DNA of 64,000 nt, taken from the sequence record NC_055781.1, one strand, 5' to 3'. Both the position numbers and the translations under genes were made by a program. Every line of letters starts with the position of its first letter. Position 1 is the stretch's first letter. The notes under the pieces were generated by a model. It searched no databases, was not told the DNA's origin, and worked only from the letters and a program-made list of their open reading frames with translations. Shown here in pieces: positions 10,700-38,169 of the stretch. Source of the DNA: Escherichia phage p000v.

Positions 10700-10728
10700 T
10701 TTACATACCACAAGGATTGTGGTACAAT
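10699..10728 (+). promoter_or_regulatory. T4-type early promoter upstream of rnlA
   Basis: GTTTAC 10699..10704 (overlaps denA stop), 17-bp spacer, TACAAT 10723..10728. Confidence 0.55.
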
Positions 10729-10746: not shown

Positions 10747-11880
<1,134 letters not shown>

Positions 11881-11882
11881 TG

Positions 11883-11912
11883 GTTTACAAACACCAAGGA
11901 TGGTGTTACTAT
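11883..11912 (+). promoter_or_regulatory. T4-type early promoter upstream of alc
   Basis: GTTTAC 11883..11888, 17-bp spacer, TACTAT 11907..11912, leader CAACAACACGAGGAGAAAA. Confidence 0.6.
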
Positions 11913-11942
11913 GGCTTTTATCAACAACACGAGGAGAAAATT

Positions 11943-12443
11943 ATGAATATGCAATTGATTACTAACGATATGGTTGTGGCAGCATTTGGTGATTCTACAG
12001 ATGGAATCCGAGTCTTTAAGAAAGGACGTCCAGTTGGTTATCTTACTGACCTTCGTGTTACACTGGCCAAAAATCTTAAAAAGAAAGTAAAACAAAAAGA
12101 GTATTCCACCCGATACGCTGAAGAGAAACGCGAAGCGATGCCAGAAGCAGTTAATGCCATGGTAGAATTTCTTCAAAACAATTTGACTAAATATGACGCT
12201 AATGTGTTCATTAATATTAGTCAACCAAACGTACATATCGCAGGTATAAAATTCTACATCATTTGCGACCCTCTTACCGACAAATTCAACCGTCTCGGAA
12301 TTTCAAGTCCATATCATACAGCAGAAGAGTTGTGTGTATTGTTTGAATCGTACAAAATCCAGTGTGATGGTTTGAAAACCGTTCTTATCAATGGATTATC
12401 CCGAGATGAAATCATTGAGATTATTAAAACATGCTTAAAGTAA
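11943..12443 (+). CDS. alc: Alc (unfolds host nucleoid / blocks transcription of cytosine DNA)
   Basis: 166 aa from ATG 11943 (MNMQLITNDMVVAAFGDS...), matching T4 Alc length; the track ORF 11880..12443 is a read-through of the promoter cassette. Confidence 0.7.
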   Translation: MNMQLITNDMVVAAFGDSTDGIRVFKKGRPVGYLTDLRVTLAKNLKKKVKQKEYSTRYAEEKREAMPEAVNAMVEFLQNNLTKYDANVFINISQPNVHIAGIKFYIICDPLTDKFNRLGISSPYHTAEELCVLFESYKIQCDGLKTVLINGLSRDEIIEIIKTCLK

Positions 12444-12787
12444 ATGCATCATATATTGTAGTGGCAGCTTTTGCGGTTGTTGCTACTGTAACAATAGCAT
12501 TTCTGAACCATAAAGTCGATTCGCTGAATACCGAATTGGCTACAGTAAAAGAGACTGCTAAAAACAATGCTAAAGTATTAGACGACTTCAAGATTCAATA
12601 TCAGTCTATAGAAGAAATGACATATAAGAATCGTGTTTTAGTTGACCAACTTAAGGCCGAAAATGAAAAGCTCCGTAAGGATTCGAAGAAGAAGAACGTG
12701 GTGGCAAGTAAACCAGGATTGGTCGAAAAACAAATCAACAAGTCCTTCGATTCCTTTGCAGAAGACCTCAGGAAGCTCTCAGAATGA
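12431..12787 (+). CDS. i-spanin-like protein (pseT.3 position): N-terminal transmembrane helix plus periplasmic coiled coil
   Basis: 118 aa; hydrophobic segment SYIVVAAFAVVATVTIAFL then heptad-rich charged domain; followed by overlapping lipoprotein ORF. Confidence 0.55.
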   Translation: MLKVNASYIVVAAFAVVATVTIAFLNHKVDSLNTELATVKETAKNNAKVLDDFKIQYQSIEEMTYKNRVLVDQLKAENEKLRKDSKKKNVVASKPGLVEKQINKSFDSFAEDLRKLSE

Positions 12788-13074
12788 TTAAATTAACCGC
12801 AGTTGTATTATCTATTGGTATTTTGGCTGGATGTGCCCAGGATGTGCCCTTAAGCCCTAAAGAAACTTTACATCCGCCATGGCCTGAATCTATTGTTGAA
12901 TATAATCAGAAATGGCAAGTAAAGGTTATTGATGGTAATCCATGGGTTGGAATGCCATTTGAAGACTCTCAAGAATTTCGTATCTGGTTAAACGACGTAA
13001 AAAGATATGTACATGACCAGAAGACTATGTTATGTTATTATCGTAGTGGTTTAAAAGAGGAAAAATGTCAATGA
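12784..13074 (+). CDS. o-spanin-like outer-membrane lipoprotein (pseT.2 position)
   Basis: 96 aa; lipobox signal MIKLTAVVLSIGILAGC-AQ; proline-rich; overlaps i-spanin stop (ATGA). Confidence 0.55.
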   Translation: MIKLTAVVLSIGILAGCAQDVPLSPKETLHPPWPESIVEYNQKWQVKVIDGNPWVGMPFEDSQEFRIWLNDVKRYVHDQKTMLCYYRSGLKEEKCQ

Positions 13075-13289
13075 CTAAAGAACAGCATGAATACATTAAA
13101 GGGCTTATCTATGAATCTGAAATGGCGGCTATGATTTATGGGCGCCAGATTCAACGATTAGAATCTTTGCCTCCAACTAACGACCGCTTGTTAGTTCAGT
13201 CTCGTGCTAATCTGAAAAATGAATATCAGAATAAGTGGGCAGTAGCGACTAAAGCTCTTCACGAGTATATTGAATCTTTAGTAAAATAG
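13065..13289 (+). CDS. Hypothetical small protein
   Basis: 74-aa ORF overlapping the o-spanin 3' end; no motif recognised. Confidence 0.4.
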   Translation: MSMTKEQHEYIKGLIYESEMAAMIYGRQIQRLESLPPTNDRLLVQSRANLKNEYQNKWAVATKALHEYIESLVK

Positions 13290-13318
13290 TTTACAAACTC
13301 TCAGGAGCAGAGTATAAT
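13289..13318 (+). promoter_or_regulatory. T4-type early promoter
   Basis: GTTTAC 13289..13294, 17-bp spacer, TATAAT 13313..13318. Confidence 0.6.
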
Positions 13319-13346
13319 GCTCCTATGGATAATTGAGGAAATCTAA

Positions 13347-13645
13347 ATGAAAACATTACTAGAGAATTACATCAAACGGTCTGATGAGTATATTGATATC
13401 TGTCGTGGAATGTCACTTGGCAATTATGACAAAGATGCAGCAAAGGCACTAGATGAAGCAGGTAAAGCTCTTCGTAAAGCTGCTAAAGAAAAAGGGTTGG
13501 ATTTGCAACAACTCAAAAGTCATATGATTAAATTTATTTCTTCAAACGTTAGAAGTACGTCAATTAATAAAAACGTTGCTGAAATTAATAAAGACCGGCG
13601 CGAGCATAACATTCGTATTCTTGAAATTTTCTTAGGAATAAAATA

Positions 13646-13646
<1 letters not shown>
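13347..13646 (+). CDS. Hypothetical early protein
   Basis: 99-aa ORF with RBS GAGGAAA and own early promoter; lysine-rich, helical. Confidence 0.45.
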
Positions 13647-14732
<1,086 letters not shown>

Positions 14733-15827: not shown

Positions 15828-16820
15828 ATGTTACCTGTCGTCGGAAAACTTATTTCTCCAAAAGAACTAGCTGAGATTATTCCTTTGTCGGAAGCTTACG
15901 CATCACAAGTGGCTTCTCATCGCGAACAAGTTAATTCGATTATGAACGGTGAAGACCCACGCAAACTTATTGTTGTAGGTCCTTGTTCAATTCATGACCC
16001 TATTGCTGCTGTTGAATACGGCAAACGTCTGGCTGAACTTCAAACTCGTCTTCCTAATGTTCTGTTAGTGATGCGCGTTTATTTTGAAAAGCCTCGAACT
16101 ACCGTAGGTTGGAAAGGTCTTGTAAATGATCCATATCTTGACGGAAGTTTTGATATGAACCACGGTCTTATAGTTGCACGAACATTGTGTCGTAAACTTC
16201 TACGTATGGGACTTCCATTAGCAACTGAAGTATTAGACCCATTCACTATTAAGTATCTTTCTGGTATTTTCTCATGGGTTGCTATTGGCGCACGTACGAC
16301 TGAAAGTCAGACACATCGTGAAATTGCTTCAGGTCTACCGATGTGCGTAGGCTTCAAGAACGCAACCAATGGTTCTATTAAAGTAGCTACAGACGCGATG
16401 TATAGTGCCGCCTGGCCTCATCGGTATATGGGTATGGACGTCGATGGTACTGTAGGCATTGTTGAAGCTGAAGGTAATCAGAATACGCATATCGTATTGC
16501 GTGGCGGGACCAACGGCCCGAACTATCATTCTTCTGATATTCAAGAAGCTTCTAACAAAGCAAGGGCAGTAGGTCTGAATCATTATGTAATGGTTGACTG
16601 TAGCCATGCAAACGCTGATGGGCATTATAGCAATCAAATTGGTATTGGTAAAAATTTAGCAGCTAATGATTTGGTCAAAGGAATTATGATAGAATCGTTC
16701 CTACATGAAGGAAATCAAAAAATTTCTGATAATATGTCCTATGGCGTTTCCGTTACCGATGCGTGCATCAGTTGGGAACAAACTAAAGAGCTGTTAACTT
16801 ATATTAATAAGGTTCAATAA
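15828..16820 (+). CDS. 3-deoxy-D-arabino-heptulosonate-7-phosphate (DAHP) synthase, class I alpha (AroG/AroF/AroH-like)
   Basis: 330 aa; hallmark motifs LIVVGPCSIHD, VMRVYFEKPRTTVGWKGLVNDP, IGARTTESQTHRE, GFKN, RGG..PNY, VDCSHAN align with E. coli AroG/AroH as recalled; N-terminus ~15-25 residues shorter than the E. coli enzymes. Confidence 0.85.
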   Translation: MLPVVGKLISPKELAEIIPLSEAYASQVASHREQVNSIMNGEDPRKLIVVGPCSIHDPIAAVEYGKRLAELQTRLPNVLLVMRVYFEKPRTTVGWKGLVNDPYLDGSFDMNHGLIVARTLCRKLLRMGLPLATEVLDPFTIKYLSGIFSWVAIGARTTESQTHREIASGLPMCVGFKNATNGSIKVATDAMYSAAWPHRYMGMDVDGTVGIVEAEGNQNTHIVLRGGTNGPNYHSSDIQEASNKARAVGLNHYVMVDCSHANADGHYSNQIGIGKNLAANDLVKGIMIESFLHEGNQKISDNMSYGVSVTDACISWEQTKELLTYINKVQ

Positions 16821-18213: not shown

Positions 18214-18462
18214 ATGATTAAACAATTACAACACGCTCTTGAACTGCAACGCAACGCATGGAATAACGGTCACGAAAACTACGGCGCGTCAATTGATGTT
18301 GAAGCCGAAGCACTGGAAATCCTGCGTTATTTCAAACACCTGAATCCTGCTCAGGCTACTCTGGCTTCTGAACTGGAAGCTAAAGATGAATTGAAATATG
18401 CTAAGCCTCTGGCTTCTGCAGCACGCAAAGCAGTTCGTCATTTTGTTATTACTTTGAAATAA
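18214..18462 (+). CDS. rIII: Lysis inhibition accessory protein rIII
   Basis: 82 aa, T4 rIII length; located immediately downstream of gene 31 as in T4. Confidence 0.6.
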   Translation: MIKQLQHALELQRNAWNNGHENYGASIDVEAEALEILRYFKHLNPAQATLASELEAKDELKYAKPLASAARKAVRHFVITLK

Positions 18463-18627
18463 TTGCTATCATGCGTCAGCAAAAGGTTAGCTGTGTAAGT
18501 CATGGTAGGTATGATGACGGGTTTATGGTTATCCCGGTCGTTAAATATCCAAAAACCTATGTTCCCCTTGAGGGCTTGCGCAGGCAATGTCAATAAGTCC
18601 TGCATTTTCATTTAAAGAGAATTTATA

Positions 18628-18807
18628 ATGGCAAAACAAGCTAAAGCAAAGAAAGCAGTTGAAAAGAAAGTTGATGGTACCTCTAAACGCTCTGGATACA
18701 AGCGTGGGTCGAACTCTCGTATTAATCAAACAGTTGAGAAGATCATGCGCAGAGCACGTGCAGTTCTTCGAGATGATGCTTCTCGTTTTGGAAAGGTTGT
18801 TGCATAA
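18628..18807 (+). CDS. Hypothetical small lysine/arginine-rich protein (59 aa), not in the supplied ORF track
   Basis: ATG 18628 preceded by AAAGAGA RBS; MAKQAKAKKAVEKKVDGTSKRSGYKRGSNSRINQTVEKIMRRARAVLRDDASRFGKVVA; followed directly by a strong terminator. Confidence 0.4.
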   Translation: MAKQAKAKKAVEKKVDGTSKRSGYKRGSNSRINQTVEKIMRRARAVLRDDASRFGKVVA

Positions 18808-18812
18808 TTTTA

Positions 18813-18834
18813 GGGAGACTTCGGTCTCCCTTTT
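18813..18834 (+). terminator. Intrinsic terminator (same hairpin as after gene 32)
   Basis: GGGAGAC-TTCG-GTCTCCC followed by TTTT. Confidence 0.7.
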
Positions 18835-18866
18835 GTGCGTTTAGGGCAGAAAAAGTTTAAAAAGAT

Positions 18867-18895
18867 GTTTACTCTCCTGTAGGATGTGTTACTAT
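18867..18895 (+). promoter_or_regulatory. T4-type early promoter
   Basis: GTTTAC 18867..18872, TGTGT-TACTAT 18890..18895, then TAGACTTGTACCA...CTGGAGAATAAAATG leader. Confidence 0.6.
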
Positions 18896-18937
18896 AGACT
18901 TGTACCACCTAATCAATAAAACAAACTGGAGAATAAA

Positions 18938-19306
18938 ATGAAAATCAATCTGAACTCATACATCAAATGTAAAGACCACGACGGTTATAAAGCTATCGAA
19001 ATTAAAGAATTCCAGTGGATGTTATACAAAGAGCAATTTGAGATCGTAAGTTGTATGACCCCTGAAGGTCCTTCAAATGATTTCTCTTGGAAAATTGTGT
19101 TAGCAAACTTTTTCACAGGTGACACATACGAATTAAAAACTATTATTACCGGTAAAATTCGTTCAGAAACATATGTTGACGAAGAAACTGGTTACTCTGA
19201 AGATGTTACATGGTATCAAAATGGACGCATTACAGCAGATAACCTGATCGAAAAAATGAAAGCCAAAGGTGTTTTAAATTTAGACAATTGGATTAAAGTT
19301 GCATAA
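18938..19306 (+). CDS. Hypothetical early protein (30.x cluster)
   Basis: 122-aa ORF with own early promoter and RBS GGAGAA. Confidence 0.5.
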   Translation: MKINLNSYIKCKDHDGYKAIEIKEFQWMLYKEQFEIVSCMTPEGPSNDFSWKIVLANFFTGDTYELKTIITGKIRSETYVDEETGYSEDVTWYQNGRITADNLIEKMKAKGVLNLDNWIKVA

Positions 19307-19310
19307 AACA

Positions 19311-19340
19311 GTTTACTTTGGTACAGGTTATGTTATTATA
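19311..19340 (+). promoter_or_regulatory. T4-type early promoter (near-duplicate of the 18867 cassette)
   Basis: GTTTAC 19311..19316, 17-bp spacer, TATTAT 19335..19340, then TAGACCTGTACCA...CTGGAGAATAAAATG leader. Confidence 0.55.
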
Positions 19341-19380
19341 GACCTGTACCAACAAACAACTTAAACATCTGGAGAATAAA

Positions 19381-19746
19381 ATGAACTACATCAACTTCGA
19401 ACGTAAATATGTTTCTAACGGTATCGCTGGTTCTTCTGAAGTTATTTGCTTATGGAAACACAAAAACGGTACAGTTTGTGAAATCGAACAGTGCATGACT
19501 CCTAATTACGTTTATATGCGCTTTGAAAATGGTATCACGGTTTCAATCACGTTGGAAGGTTCCAACTTCAAAATTGCATTAGATGACGATTTCCGTCAAC
19601 GTGATTTAGGTACTCATCCTTGCTGGAACGGTGTTAATCGTAAGCTTCTGGTTAAAACTTGGATTCGTCACATCCTGAGCAACCGAGCTAAACCTGAACA
19701 CCTGGAAGCAATCTTTGATGTAGTTCTGAACGAATTCGATATCTAA
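19381..19746 (+). CDS. Hypothetical early protein (30.x cluster)
   Basis: 121-aa ORF; contains several Cys/His (C..C, HPCW) but no confident motif. Confidence 0.5.
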   Translation: MNYINFERKYVSNGIAGSSEVICLWKHKNGTVCEIEQCMTPNYVYMRFENGITVSITLEGSNFKIALDDDFRQRDLGTHPCWNGVNRKLLVKTWIRHILSNRAKPEHLEAIFDVVLNEFDI

Positions 19747-19756
19747 TCTTAAAAAT

Positions 19757-19775
19757 GGAGGCCGAAGCCTCCTTT
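19757..19775 (+). terminator. Hairpin / weak terminator
   Basis: GGAGGC-CGAA-GCCTCC followed by TTT. Confidence 0.45.
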
Positions 19776-19787
19776 GAGGAAAATATT

Positions 19788-20075
19788 ATGTTTATGACCA
19801 CTTATTTCGATACTCGTAAAAATTTCTGTGAAGTTGTTTTCTCTAAAGCAGGTAAAGATGTTCCTGCCGACAAACAGCCCACTCGTGAATCCATTAAGGC
19901 TTATGCTGATGTGGTTTGTCCAGTAGAATTCCGTACAGTCAATGGTCGTGACACCCTAGCAATCACTAAGCTCAACCATGATATTAACATCGGCTCTAGC
20001 GCCGCACGTGAAGTCAATACCTCTGACATCTATGGCGGTAATGTTAAATCACACGGATTTCAGATGAGGTTCTAA
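19788..20075 (+). CDS. Hypothetical protein (30.x cluster)
   Basis: 95 aa from ATG 19788 (MFMTTYFDTRKNF...); the track ORF 19755..20075 starts inside the upstream hairpin. Confidence 0.45.
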   Translation: MFMTTYFDTRKNFCEVVFSKAGKDVPADKQPTRESIKAYADVVCPVEFRTVNGRDTLAITKLNHDINIGSSAAREVNTSDIYGGNVKSHGFQMRF

Positions 20076-20269
20076 TGCAACTATTCTTATCACAAACTGT
20101 CCAGTTAAAAGGTATAGGTATCCCCGGAATGATTTCAAAGGTTTTACCTGCTTTTAAAATTAACGGTAATGTAATTAAAGAAGCCTATGCAGTCCTGTGG
20201 GTTGATGGAACTGAAGACGTCCGCATGAGCCAAGAACTGTCTGTAATCAAATGTTTAAAGCGAGGATAA
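20075..20269 (+). CDS. Hypothetical small protein
   Basis: 64-aa ORF, start overlaps preceding stop. Confidence 0.4.
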   Translation: MQLFLSQTVQLKGIGIPGMISKVLPAFKINGNVIKEAYAVLWVDGTEDVRMSQELSVIKCLKRG

Positions 20270-37038: not shown

Positions 37039-38169
37039 ATGGCTTTTACAGTTGATATAACTCCTAAAACACCTACTGGAGTTATAGATGAGACTAAGCA
37101 GTTTACTGCTACTCCCAGTGGTGAAACTGGAGGTGGAACTATTACCTATGCATGGAGTGTAGACGATGCTCCTCAAGTAGGATCGGCAGAAACTTTTGAT
37201 TACGTGTTAAAAGGACCCGCTGGAACAAAAACAATTAAAGTTGTTGCAACAAATACTATTCCTGATACTGATGCCGAAACGGCAGAAATTACTACGACTA
37301 TCACGGTTAAAAATAAAACTCAGTCAACTACTTTGGCAGTAACTCCCGATAGTCCTTCAGCTGGAGTAATTGGAACCCCAGTTCAATTTACTGCTGCCTT
37401 AGCTTCTCAACCGGCTGGAGCGTCTGCTACGTATCAGTGGTATGTAGATGATTCACAGGTTGGTGGAGAAACTAACTCTACATTTAGCTATACTCCAACT
37501 ACAAGTGGAGTAAAAAGAATTAAATGTGTAGCTCAAGTAACTGCGACAGATTATGATGCAAAGGAAGTTACTTCGAATGAAGTATCATTAACGGTTAATA
37601 AGAAGACAATGAATCCACAGGTTACATTGACTCCTCCTTCTATTAACGTTCAACAAGATGCTTCGGCTACATTTACTGCTAATGTGACTGATGCTCCGGA
37701 AGAAGCGCAAATTGCGTATTCATGGAAGAAAGATTCTTCTCCTGTAGAAGGGTCAACTAATGTATATACCGTTGATACTTCATCTGTTGGAAGTCAAACT
37801 ATTGAAGTGACTGCCATCGTTACTGCAGATGACTATGATAGCAAAACTATTACAGCAGAAGGTCAAGTTCAAGTGACTGATAAAGTTGCTCCGGAACCAG
37901 AAGGTGAATTACCTTATGTTCATCCTCTTCCACATCGTACTTCAGCTTACATCTGGTGCGGTTGGTGGGTTATGGATGAAATCCAAAAAATGACTGAAGA
38001 AGGTAAAGATTGGAAAACTGAAGATCCAGATAGTAAATACTACCTGCATCGTTACACTCTTCAGAAGATGATGAAAGACTATCCGGAAGTTGATGTTCAA
38101 GAATCACGTAATGGATACATCATCCATAAAACTGCTTTGGAAACTGGTATCATCTATACATATCCATAA
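37039..38169 (+). CDS. hoc: Highly immunogenic outer capsid protein Hoc
   Basis: 376 aa (T4 Hoc length); repeated Ig-like segments (ATYQWYVDDSQVGGETNSTFSYTP, IAYSWKKDSSPVEGSTNVYTV). Confidence 0.85.
   Translation: MAFTVDITPKTPTGVIDETKQFTATPSGETGGGTITYAWSVDDAPQVGSAETFDYVLKGPAGTKTIKVVATNTIPDTDAETAEITTTITVKNKTQSTTLAVTPDSPSAGVIGTPVQFTAALASQPAGASATYQWYVDDSQVGGETNSTFSYTPTTSGVKRIKCVAQVTATDYDAKEVTSNEVSLTVNKKTMNPQVTLTPPSINVQQDASATFTANVTDAPEEAQIAYSWKKDSSPVEGSTNVYTVDTSSVGSQTIEVTAIVTADDYDSKTITAEGQVQVTDKVAPEPEGELPYVHPLPHRTSAYIWCGWWVMDEIQKMTEEGKDWKTEDPDSKYYLHRYTLQKMMKDYPEVDVQESRNGYIIHKTALETGIIYTYP

Follow-up and report, generated by a model that had tools for sequence, protein, structure and literature searches.

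The closest known counterparts of the gene pair analyzed here are PseT.3 and PseT.2 of phage T4 (UniProt SPAN1_BPT4 and P39503) and their orthologues in phage RB69 (AAP76133 and AAP76132). Kongari et al. (2018; PMC6139136) reported that a lambda RzamRz1am lysogen recovers lysis when supplied with T4 pseT.3 and pseT.2 (their Fig. 8b). Among two-component spanins they distinguish a "separated" class, whose prototype is the T4 pair and in which even genes with an 8-bp overlap are counted. According to the same work, T4 PseT.3 is formed by two helices with a very short linker, coiled-coil propensity being found only in helix alpha1, and it is devoid of periplasmic cysteines, whereas C87 and C98 of PseT.2 are both essential for lysis and conserved in the family.

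The Rz/Rz1 pair of phage lambda can be functionally replaced by the T4 homologues of our pair (PMC6139136). It has in common with our locus a type II inner-membrane protein with helical periplasmic domains and an outer-membrane lipoprotein. The gene arrangement is different, as Rz1 is embedded in the +1 frame of Rz and the two genes described here lie side by side. Moreover, the o-spanin of the T4 family is predicted to be structured (beta-alpha-beta), in contrast to the proline-rich and unstructured one of lambda, and disulfides are formed only in the o-spanin (PMC6139136). A third point of reference is gp11 of phage T1, a unimolecular spanin with an outer-membrane lipoprotein signal that acts in the same final step of lysis. 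However, gp11 is a single chain with a C-terminal transmembrane domain (TMD), whereas in our case the anchor is on a separate protein and the lipoprotein has no second hydrophobic segment.

The window, i.e. the whole 64-kb stretch of DNA that was analyzed, contains two plus-strand open reading frames (ORFs) starting with ATG, which encode proteins of 118 and 96 aa, hereafter PseT.3 and PseT.2. We are almost certain that these proteins belong to the T4 PseT.3/PseT.2 family and make up the two-component spanin of this RB69-like E. coli phage, which would disrupt the outer membrane of the host at the end of lysis. The features of the pair are the following, with the evidence for each in brackets:

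12431–12787, + strand: i-spanin gene, orthologue of pseT.3 (ORF, PHROG 739, identity with T4 PseT.3, synteny with RB69)
12449–12505, + strand: codons of the predicted transmembrane segment, aa 7–25, SYIVVAAFAVVATVTIAFL (best 19-aa Kyte-Doolittle stretch, 2.36)
12509–12628, + strand: heptad-periodic, coiled-coil-like part of the predicted first periplasmic helix, aa 27–66 (a/d periodicity, weak Pfam coiled-coil matches)
12713–12784, + strand: conserved C-terminal helix from the PGLVEKQIN motif, aa 95–118 (alignment of nine phages)
12784–12787, + strand: ATGA start/stop overlap between pseT.3 and pseT.2 (sequence; same 4-nt overlap in T4)
12784–13074, + strand: o-spanin gene, orthologue of pseT.2, for a putative 96-aa prolipoprotein that would give a mature outer-membrane lipoprotein of 80 aa (ORF, PHROG 812, identity with T4 PseT.2)
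12823–12834, + strand: lipobox LAGC, aa 14–17, with the Cys17 codon at 12832–12834 (regular-expression match; Cys17 invariant in nine phages)
13033–13068, + strand: o-spanin cysteines C84 (13033–13035) and C95 (13066–13068), equivalent to T4 C87 and C98 (alignment to T4)

Both proteins match over their full length PHROG families annotated as "Rz-like spanin", PseT.3 family 739 (E = 1.4e-33) and PseT.2 family 812 (E = 4.7e-43). In BLASTP comparisons with the T4 proteins, PseT.3 is 49% identical to its counterpart (E = 1e-33) and PseT.2 69% (E = 3e-51), and with RB69 the identities rise to 90% and 99%, respectively. PseT.2 is, besides, 100% identical to a protein-coding stretch of phage vB_EcoM_SQ17. 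The original prediction had placed ORFs with two-component spanin architecture at these positions and likened them to T4 pseT.3/pseT.2; the family matches and the T4 homology, together with the same gene order and the same 4-nt junction, bear out both proposals. The genes are adjacent and on the same strand, the i-spanin gene comes first and the overlap is of only 4 nt, so that the pair belongs to the "separated" class. They had also been described as overlapping, which is literally true of the ATGA tetranucleotide but does not fit the architecture class, of which T4 is precisely the prototype. The ATGA junction allows translational coupling of pseT.3 and pseT.2. On the opposite strand no ORF exceeds 55 aa, and relatives have none annotated there.

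The resemblance to T4 extends from the arrangement alc-pseT.3-pseT.2-pseT.1, remote from e and t, to the design of the proteins, which measure 118 and 96 aa here and 117 and 99 aa in T4. In both phages a predicted N-terminal TMD is followed by two periplasmic helices in the i-spanin, which lacks Cys, and the o-spanin has its lipobox at the same position and two C-terminal Cys, C84 and C95 aligning with C87 and C98 of T4. The differences are a lipobox LAGC instead of the LVGC of T4, a deletion of three residues in the linker/first-strand region of the o-spanin, a diverged TMD sequence in the i-spanin, and two extra small ORFs between pseT.1 and pseT, which are also found in RB69. As regards lambda, neither protein matches the Pfam Rz or Rz1 families at E ≤ 0.01, and the pair is, to judge from these sequence comparisons, a functional analogue of Rz/Rz1 and not a member of that family.

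The most hydrophobic 19-aa stretch of PseT.3 is the one formed by residues 7–25, with a mean Kyte-Doolittle value of 2.36, and outside it 30% of the residues are charged; the whole protein contains no Cys. Between residues 27 and 66 the heptad a/d positions are hydrophobic in 82% of the cases, versus 21% for the other positions. Thus, the membrane anchor and the coiled-coil domain that had been proposed for the first ORF are both recognizable. An AlphaFold2 model computed from the single sequence (mean pLDDT 83) predicts one helix at residues 6–87 and another at residues 96–117, separated by an eight-residue linker, in agreement with the two-helix description published for T4 PseT.3 (PMC6139136). 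The charged residues flanking the TMD are K3 before it and H27/K28 after it. This positive-inside bias is weak, so the topology rests on homology; taken with the other sequence features, an N-in/C-out orientation would be expected. In the nine-phage alignment the C-terminal helix is the best-conserved part of the i-spanin, with L97 and E99 invariant and the motif PGLVEKQIN..F nearly so, and by analogy with the C-terminal interaction of lambda Rz and Rz1 (PMC6139136) it is likely to be the contact site for the o-spanin. Searches of Pfam, NCBIfam and PDB sequences with the i-spanin gave only sub-threshold matches of coiled-coil type and chance-level PDB hits.

PseT.2 begins with MIKLTAVVLSIGILAGC, in which a basic residue and a hydrophobic core are followed by the lipobox. 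LAGC at residues 14–17 agrees with the pattern [LVI][ASTVI][GAS]C, and this consensus fit, with a Cys17 that is invariant in all nine of the diverged homologues aligned, confirms the second ORF as the lipobox protein it was said to be. The residue at position +2 is Ala and not Asp, and PseT.2 therefore lacks the Asp signal for inner-membrane retention. From the sequence features and the homology, Cys17 would be the acylated first residue of the mature protein. Two further Cys, C84 and C95, are present. A second hydrophobic segment is missing, for the best hydropathy stretch is the signal peptide itself and the C-terminus is polar (…YYRSGLKEEKCQ). The single-sequence AlphaFold2 model of PseT.2 has a pLDDT of 53 and is unreliable, and the geometry of Cys84 and Cys95 is not readable from it. 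With the o-spanin as query, searches of Pfam, NCBIfam and PDB sequences retrieved no family and no structure, the PDB hits being at chance level.

Homologues of the two genes are widespread. By tblastn the o-spanin was found in 1168 phage records and the i-spanin in 945, with identities down to 28%, in phages of Escherichia, Klebsiella, Shigella, Enterobacter, Aeromonas, Yersinia, Salmonella, Citrobacter and Serratia and in one Vibrio phage; the hosts of the close relatives are Gram-negative enterobacteria. The nine aligned phages, 24–99% identical, cover Tevenvirinae, Krischvirus, Pseudotevenvirus and Emmerichvirinae. Eight of them have both C-terminal Cys in the o-spanin. In comparison with RB69, the dN/dS values of the two spanin genes are 0.15 and 0.08, and both are under purifying selection. 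Moreover, in every relative compared the membrane-protein gene lies directly 5' of the lipoprotein gene. This adjacency and the conserved C-terminal motif of the i-spanin speak indirectly for a putative complex between the periplasmic domains of the two subunits. In Aeromonas and Vibrio phages the pair adjoins tail-fibre genes and not rnlA/pseT, with its order kept. As the pair stays intact where the neighbours differ, the two genes move as a unit that is independent of pseT.1 and alc.

Several individual relatives are worth describing. In Vibrio phage vB_VmeM-32 (L007:1127-1809) the o-spanin is without both C-terminal Cys and the i-spanin has two C-terminal Cys, and in Aeromonas phage Asswx_1 (L005:1127-1800) there are Cys pairs in both subunits; from these sequences, disulfide-forming residues appear able to move between the spanin partners. 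The PseT.2 homologue of the Krischvirus Escherichia phage E26 (L004:1309-1761) is annotated with 150 aa and a lipobox LSSC, and an N-terminal extension of about 50 residues, with a second hydrophobic stretch, precedes the lipobox; either the start was mis-called or the o-spanin is of an unusual, extended type. A further observation concerns the mosaic nature of the alleles. For the i-spanin, the closest alleles, with 98.3% identity, occur in phages such as vB_EcoM_WFL6982, in which the o-spanin reaches only 88.5%; dS versus RB69 is 0.36 for the i-spanin and 0.056 for the o-spanin. Nine of the 12 differences between PseT.3 and its RB69 orthologue fall within residues 6–27, around the TMD. The comparison of positions 12431–12520 with 12784–13074 suggests that the 5' end of pseT.3 is a patch introduced by recombination.

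The surroundings of the pair are those of an RB69-like genome. Bases 11800–13400 share 95.6–96.6% identity with many Mosigvirus (RB69-like) phages that infect E. coli and Shigella, the local identity with RB69 being 95.6%. Collinearity with RB69 (about 150.2 to 100.5 kb, reverse orientation) extends over positions 1–50292 of the window. The syntenic genes in RB69 are frd, td, nrdA, nrdB, denA, rnlA, alc, pseT.3, pseT.2, pseT.1, two small ORFs, pseT and cd; family scans of the window ORFs recovered RNA ligase 1, Alc, polynucleotide kinase/phosphatase and dCMP deaminase, in agreement with the RB69 order. As for the remaining lysis genes, tblastn with T4 query sequences gave no match to endolysin e or holin t in the window, and neither is present in the collinear segment of RB69. 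The lysis-inhibition accessory gene rIII is located at 18214–18462, about 5.1 kb downstream of pseT.2. The statement that the pair lies far from the other lysis genes is thus right for e and t, which are absent from the window, but does not apply to rIII.

Some other particularities of this genome were noticed. The longest ORF for alc (11880–12443, + strand, 187 aa) starts in an overlap with the rnlA stop; Alc family homology begins at residue 22 and the RB69 start is annotated at the equivalent of 11949, therefore the true start of alc is probably at 11943 or 11949. At its other end, alc overlaps pseT.3 by 13 nt. The two small ORFs at 13347–13646 and 13646–13837 (PHROG 2364 and 8683, of unknown function) correspond to ORF231c and ORF230c of RB69 and have no counterparts between pseT.1 and pseT in T4. 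A class I DAHP synthase of 330 aa (Pfam PF00793, E = 5.2e-75) is encoded at 15828–16820 (+ strand), between a cd.2-like ORF and the dCMP deaminase gene, in a region that constitutes an insertion of about 1.1 kb relative to RB69, with flanks about 94–96% identical to RB69. In 118 phage records this DNA recurs with an identity of at least 99%, under the annotation AroG or phospho-2-dehydro-3-deoxyheptonate aldolase; it looks like a known auxiliary metabolic gene and may have spread recently. Finally, most of hoc (37167–37894) has no megablast match to RB69, and the 30.7–30.9 region (18466–20266) is only 85% identical to it, with a gap of about 190 nt. Both are hypervariable patches of local extent, the rest of the backbone being 94–97% identical to RB69.

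With regard to transcription, the plus strand is free of the late-promoter motif TATAAATA between 3179, shortly ahead of gene 32, and 18090, shortly ahead of rIII. No such motif lies within 9 kb upstream of the pair, which is unusual for lysis genes and is the same arrangement as in T4. The early operon of the original prediction rests on the synteny of the block frd-td-nrdA-nrdB-denA-rnlA-alc and on this lack of a late-promoter motif, which suggest early expression of the pair. A candidate for the corresponding promoter, the only sigma-70-like site directly ahead of the block, is:

10700–10728, + strand: candidate early promoter of sigma-70 type, ahead of rnlA (hexamers matching at 10 of 12 positions, TG extension; consensus only)

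This site could possibly drive rnlA-alc-pseT.3-pseT.2-pseT.1. The total of sigma-70 sites found by scanning the region equals the expectation from shuffled sequence, hence promoter assignments of this kind are weak. The best sigma-70-like match in the scan is elsewhere, TTTACA-17-TATAAT with 11 of 12 positions, on the plus strand in the 57-nt gap after pseT.1 (within 13290–13837). A pattern resembling a MotA box of middle promoters, TGCTTAAAG…TATATT, was also seen at 12432–12457 (+ strand), beginning at the second base of the pseT.3 start codon. It was discarded as a promoter for the pair, given that the transcript would miss the pseT.3 start and include pseT.2, and it is probably a chance occurrence.

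Other interpretations were weighed as well. The lipoprotein, with or without the membrane protein, might serve in superinfection exclusion or receptor masking in the manner of T5 Llp or the Cor-type lipoproteins, so that early expression would protect the infected cell instead of lysing it. A small lipoprotein made by a lytic phage, encoded among pre-replicative genes and with no plus-strand late-promoter motif in the 9 kb upstream, would suit such a role. Against this, the pair is directly homologous to a T4 pair with demonstrated spanin activity (PMC6139136), the two Cys that the T4 spanin requires are conserved, the lipoprotein gene is always linked to a partner with TMD and coiled coil, and no exclusion family in Pfam, PHROG or NCBIfam matches the sequences. 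We consider exclusion very improbable for these reasons taken together. The strong matches to spanin families and to the T4 spanins also weigh against a toxin-antitoxin or a defence/anti-defence module of small membrane proteins, which two small, translationally coupled ORFs, one of them membrane-anchored, could bring to mind. PADLOC returned no family at E ≤ 0.01 for the two proteins or for PseT.1, and there is no toxin-antitoxin family among the Pfam and NCBIfam results; we give this interpretation practically no credence. The caution in the original prediction that the ORFs should not be mistaken for defence or toxin-antitoxin components was consequently well placed.

One could also think that one or both ORFs are chance frames and the lipobox a chance match, since ORFs of 96 and 118 aa are short and an AT-rich genome yields many of them. 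Homologues in about 950–1170 phage records, dN/dS values well below 1 and the invariance of Cys17 make this scarcely conceivable. A somewhat different proposal would accept the spanin and, given a pre-replicative block with no late-promoter motif in the 9 kb upstream, have its complex assembled early and serve in a second role before lysis, such as a membrane tether or envelope stabilizer in the long lysis-inhibited state. A related one would make pseT.1, the next gene downstream and translationally coupled, the source of a cytoplasmic spanin modulator. An obligatory third component is at odds with the Aeromonas and Vibrio phages, in which the pair is present without pseT.1, and in our opinion these proposals are very unlikely.

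For the two-component spanin, which is our preferred reading, a mechanism can be proposed on the basis of the homology with T4 and the lambda Rz/Rz1 model summarized in PMC6139136. PseT.3 would insert in the inner membrane via its N-terminal helix, leaving the helical domain in the periplasm, and PseT.2 would be lipidated at Cys17 and sorted to the outer membrane. The C-terminal parts of both proteins would then bind each other, giving complexes that reach across the periplasm through the peptidoglycan mesh. Near the C-terminus of PseT.2, its two Cys may form disulfides between o-spanin subunits, which would stabilize the complex and be needed for its activity. An intact wall would hold the complexes inert and permit their accumulation from early infection. 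Being inactive as long as the wall is intact, they should accumulate harmlessly at that stage, which fits the position of the genes. When holin T has let endolysin E out and the wall has been broken down, the complexes would be free to diffuse, cluster and change conformation, and the resulting fusion of inner and outer membranes would release the progeny.

Spanin pairs of this kind are already known, and in several close relatives the genes are annotated as i-spanin/o-spanin or Rz/Rz1. Many GenBank entries of relatives still label one or both as "hypothetical protein", and models for these genes are lacking in Pfam as well as in NCBIfam. As a consequence, small membrane ORFs in an early block can be mistaken for defence, exclusion or toxin genes. 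Therefore, we think that the value of the assignment lies in correct annotation and not in new biology: with the spanin, the lysis gene set of this phage, formed by holin, endolysin, spanin and antiholins, is complete.
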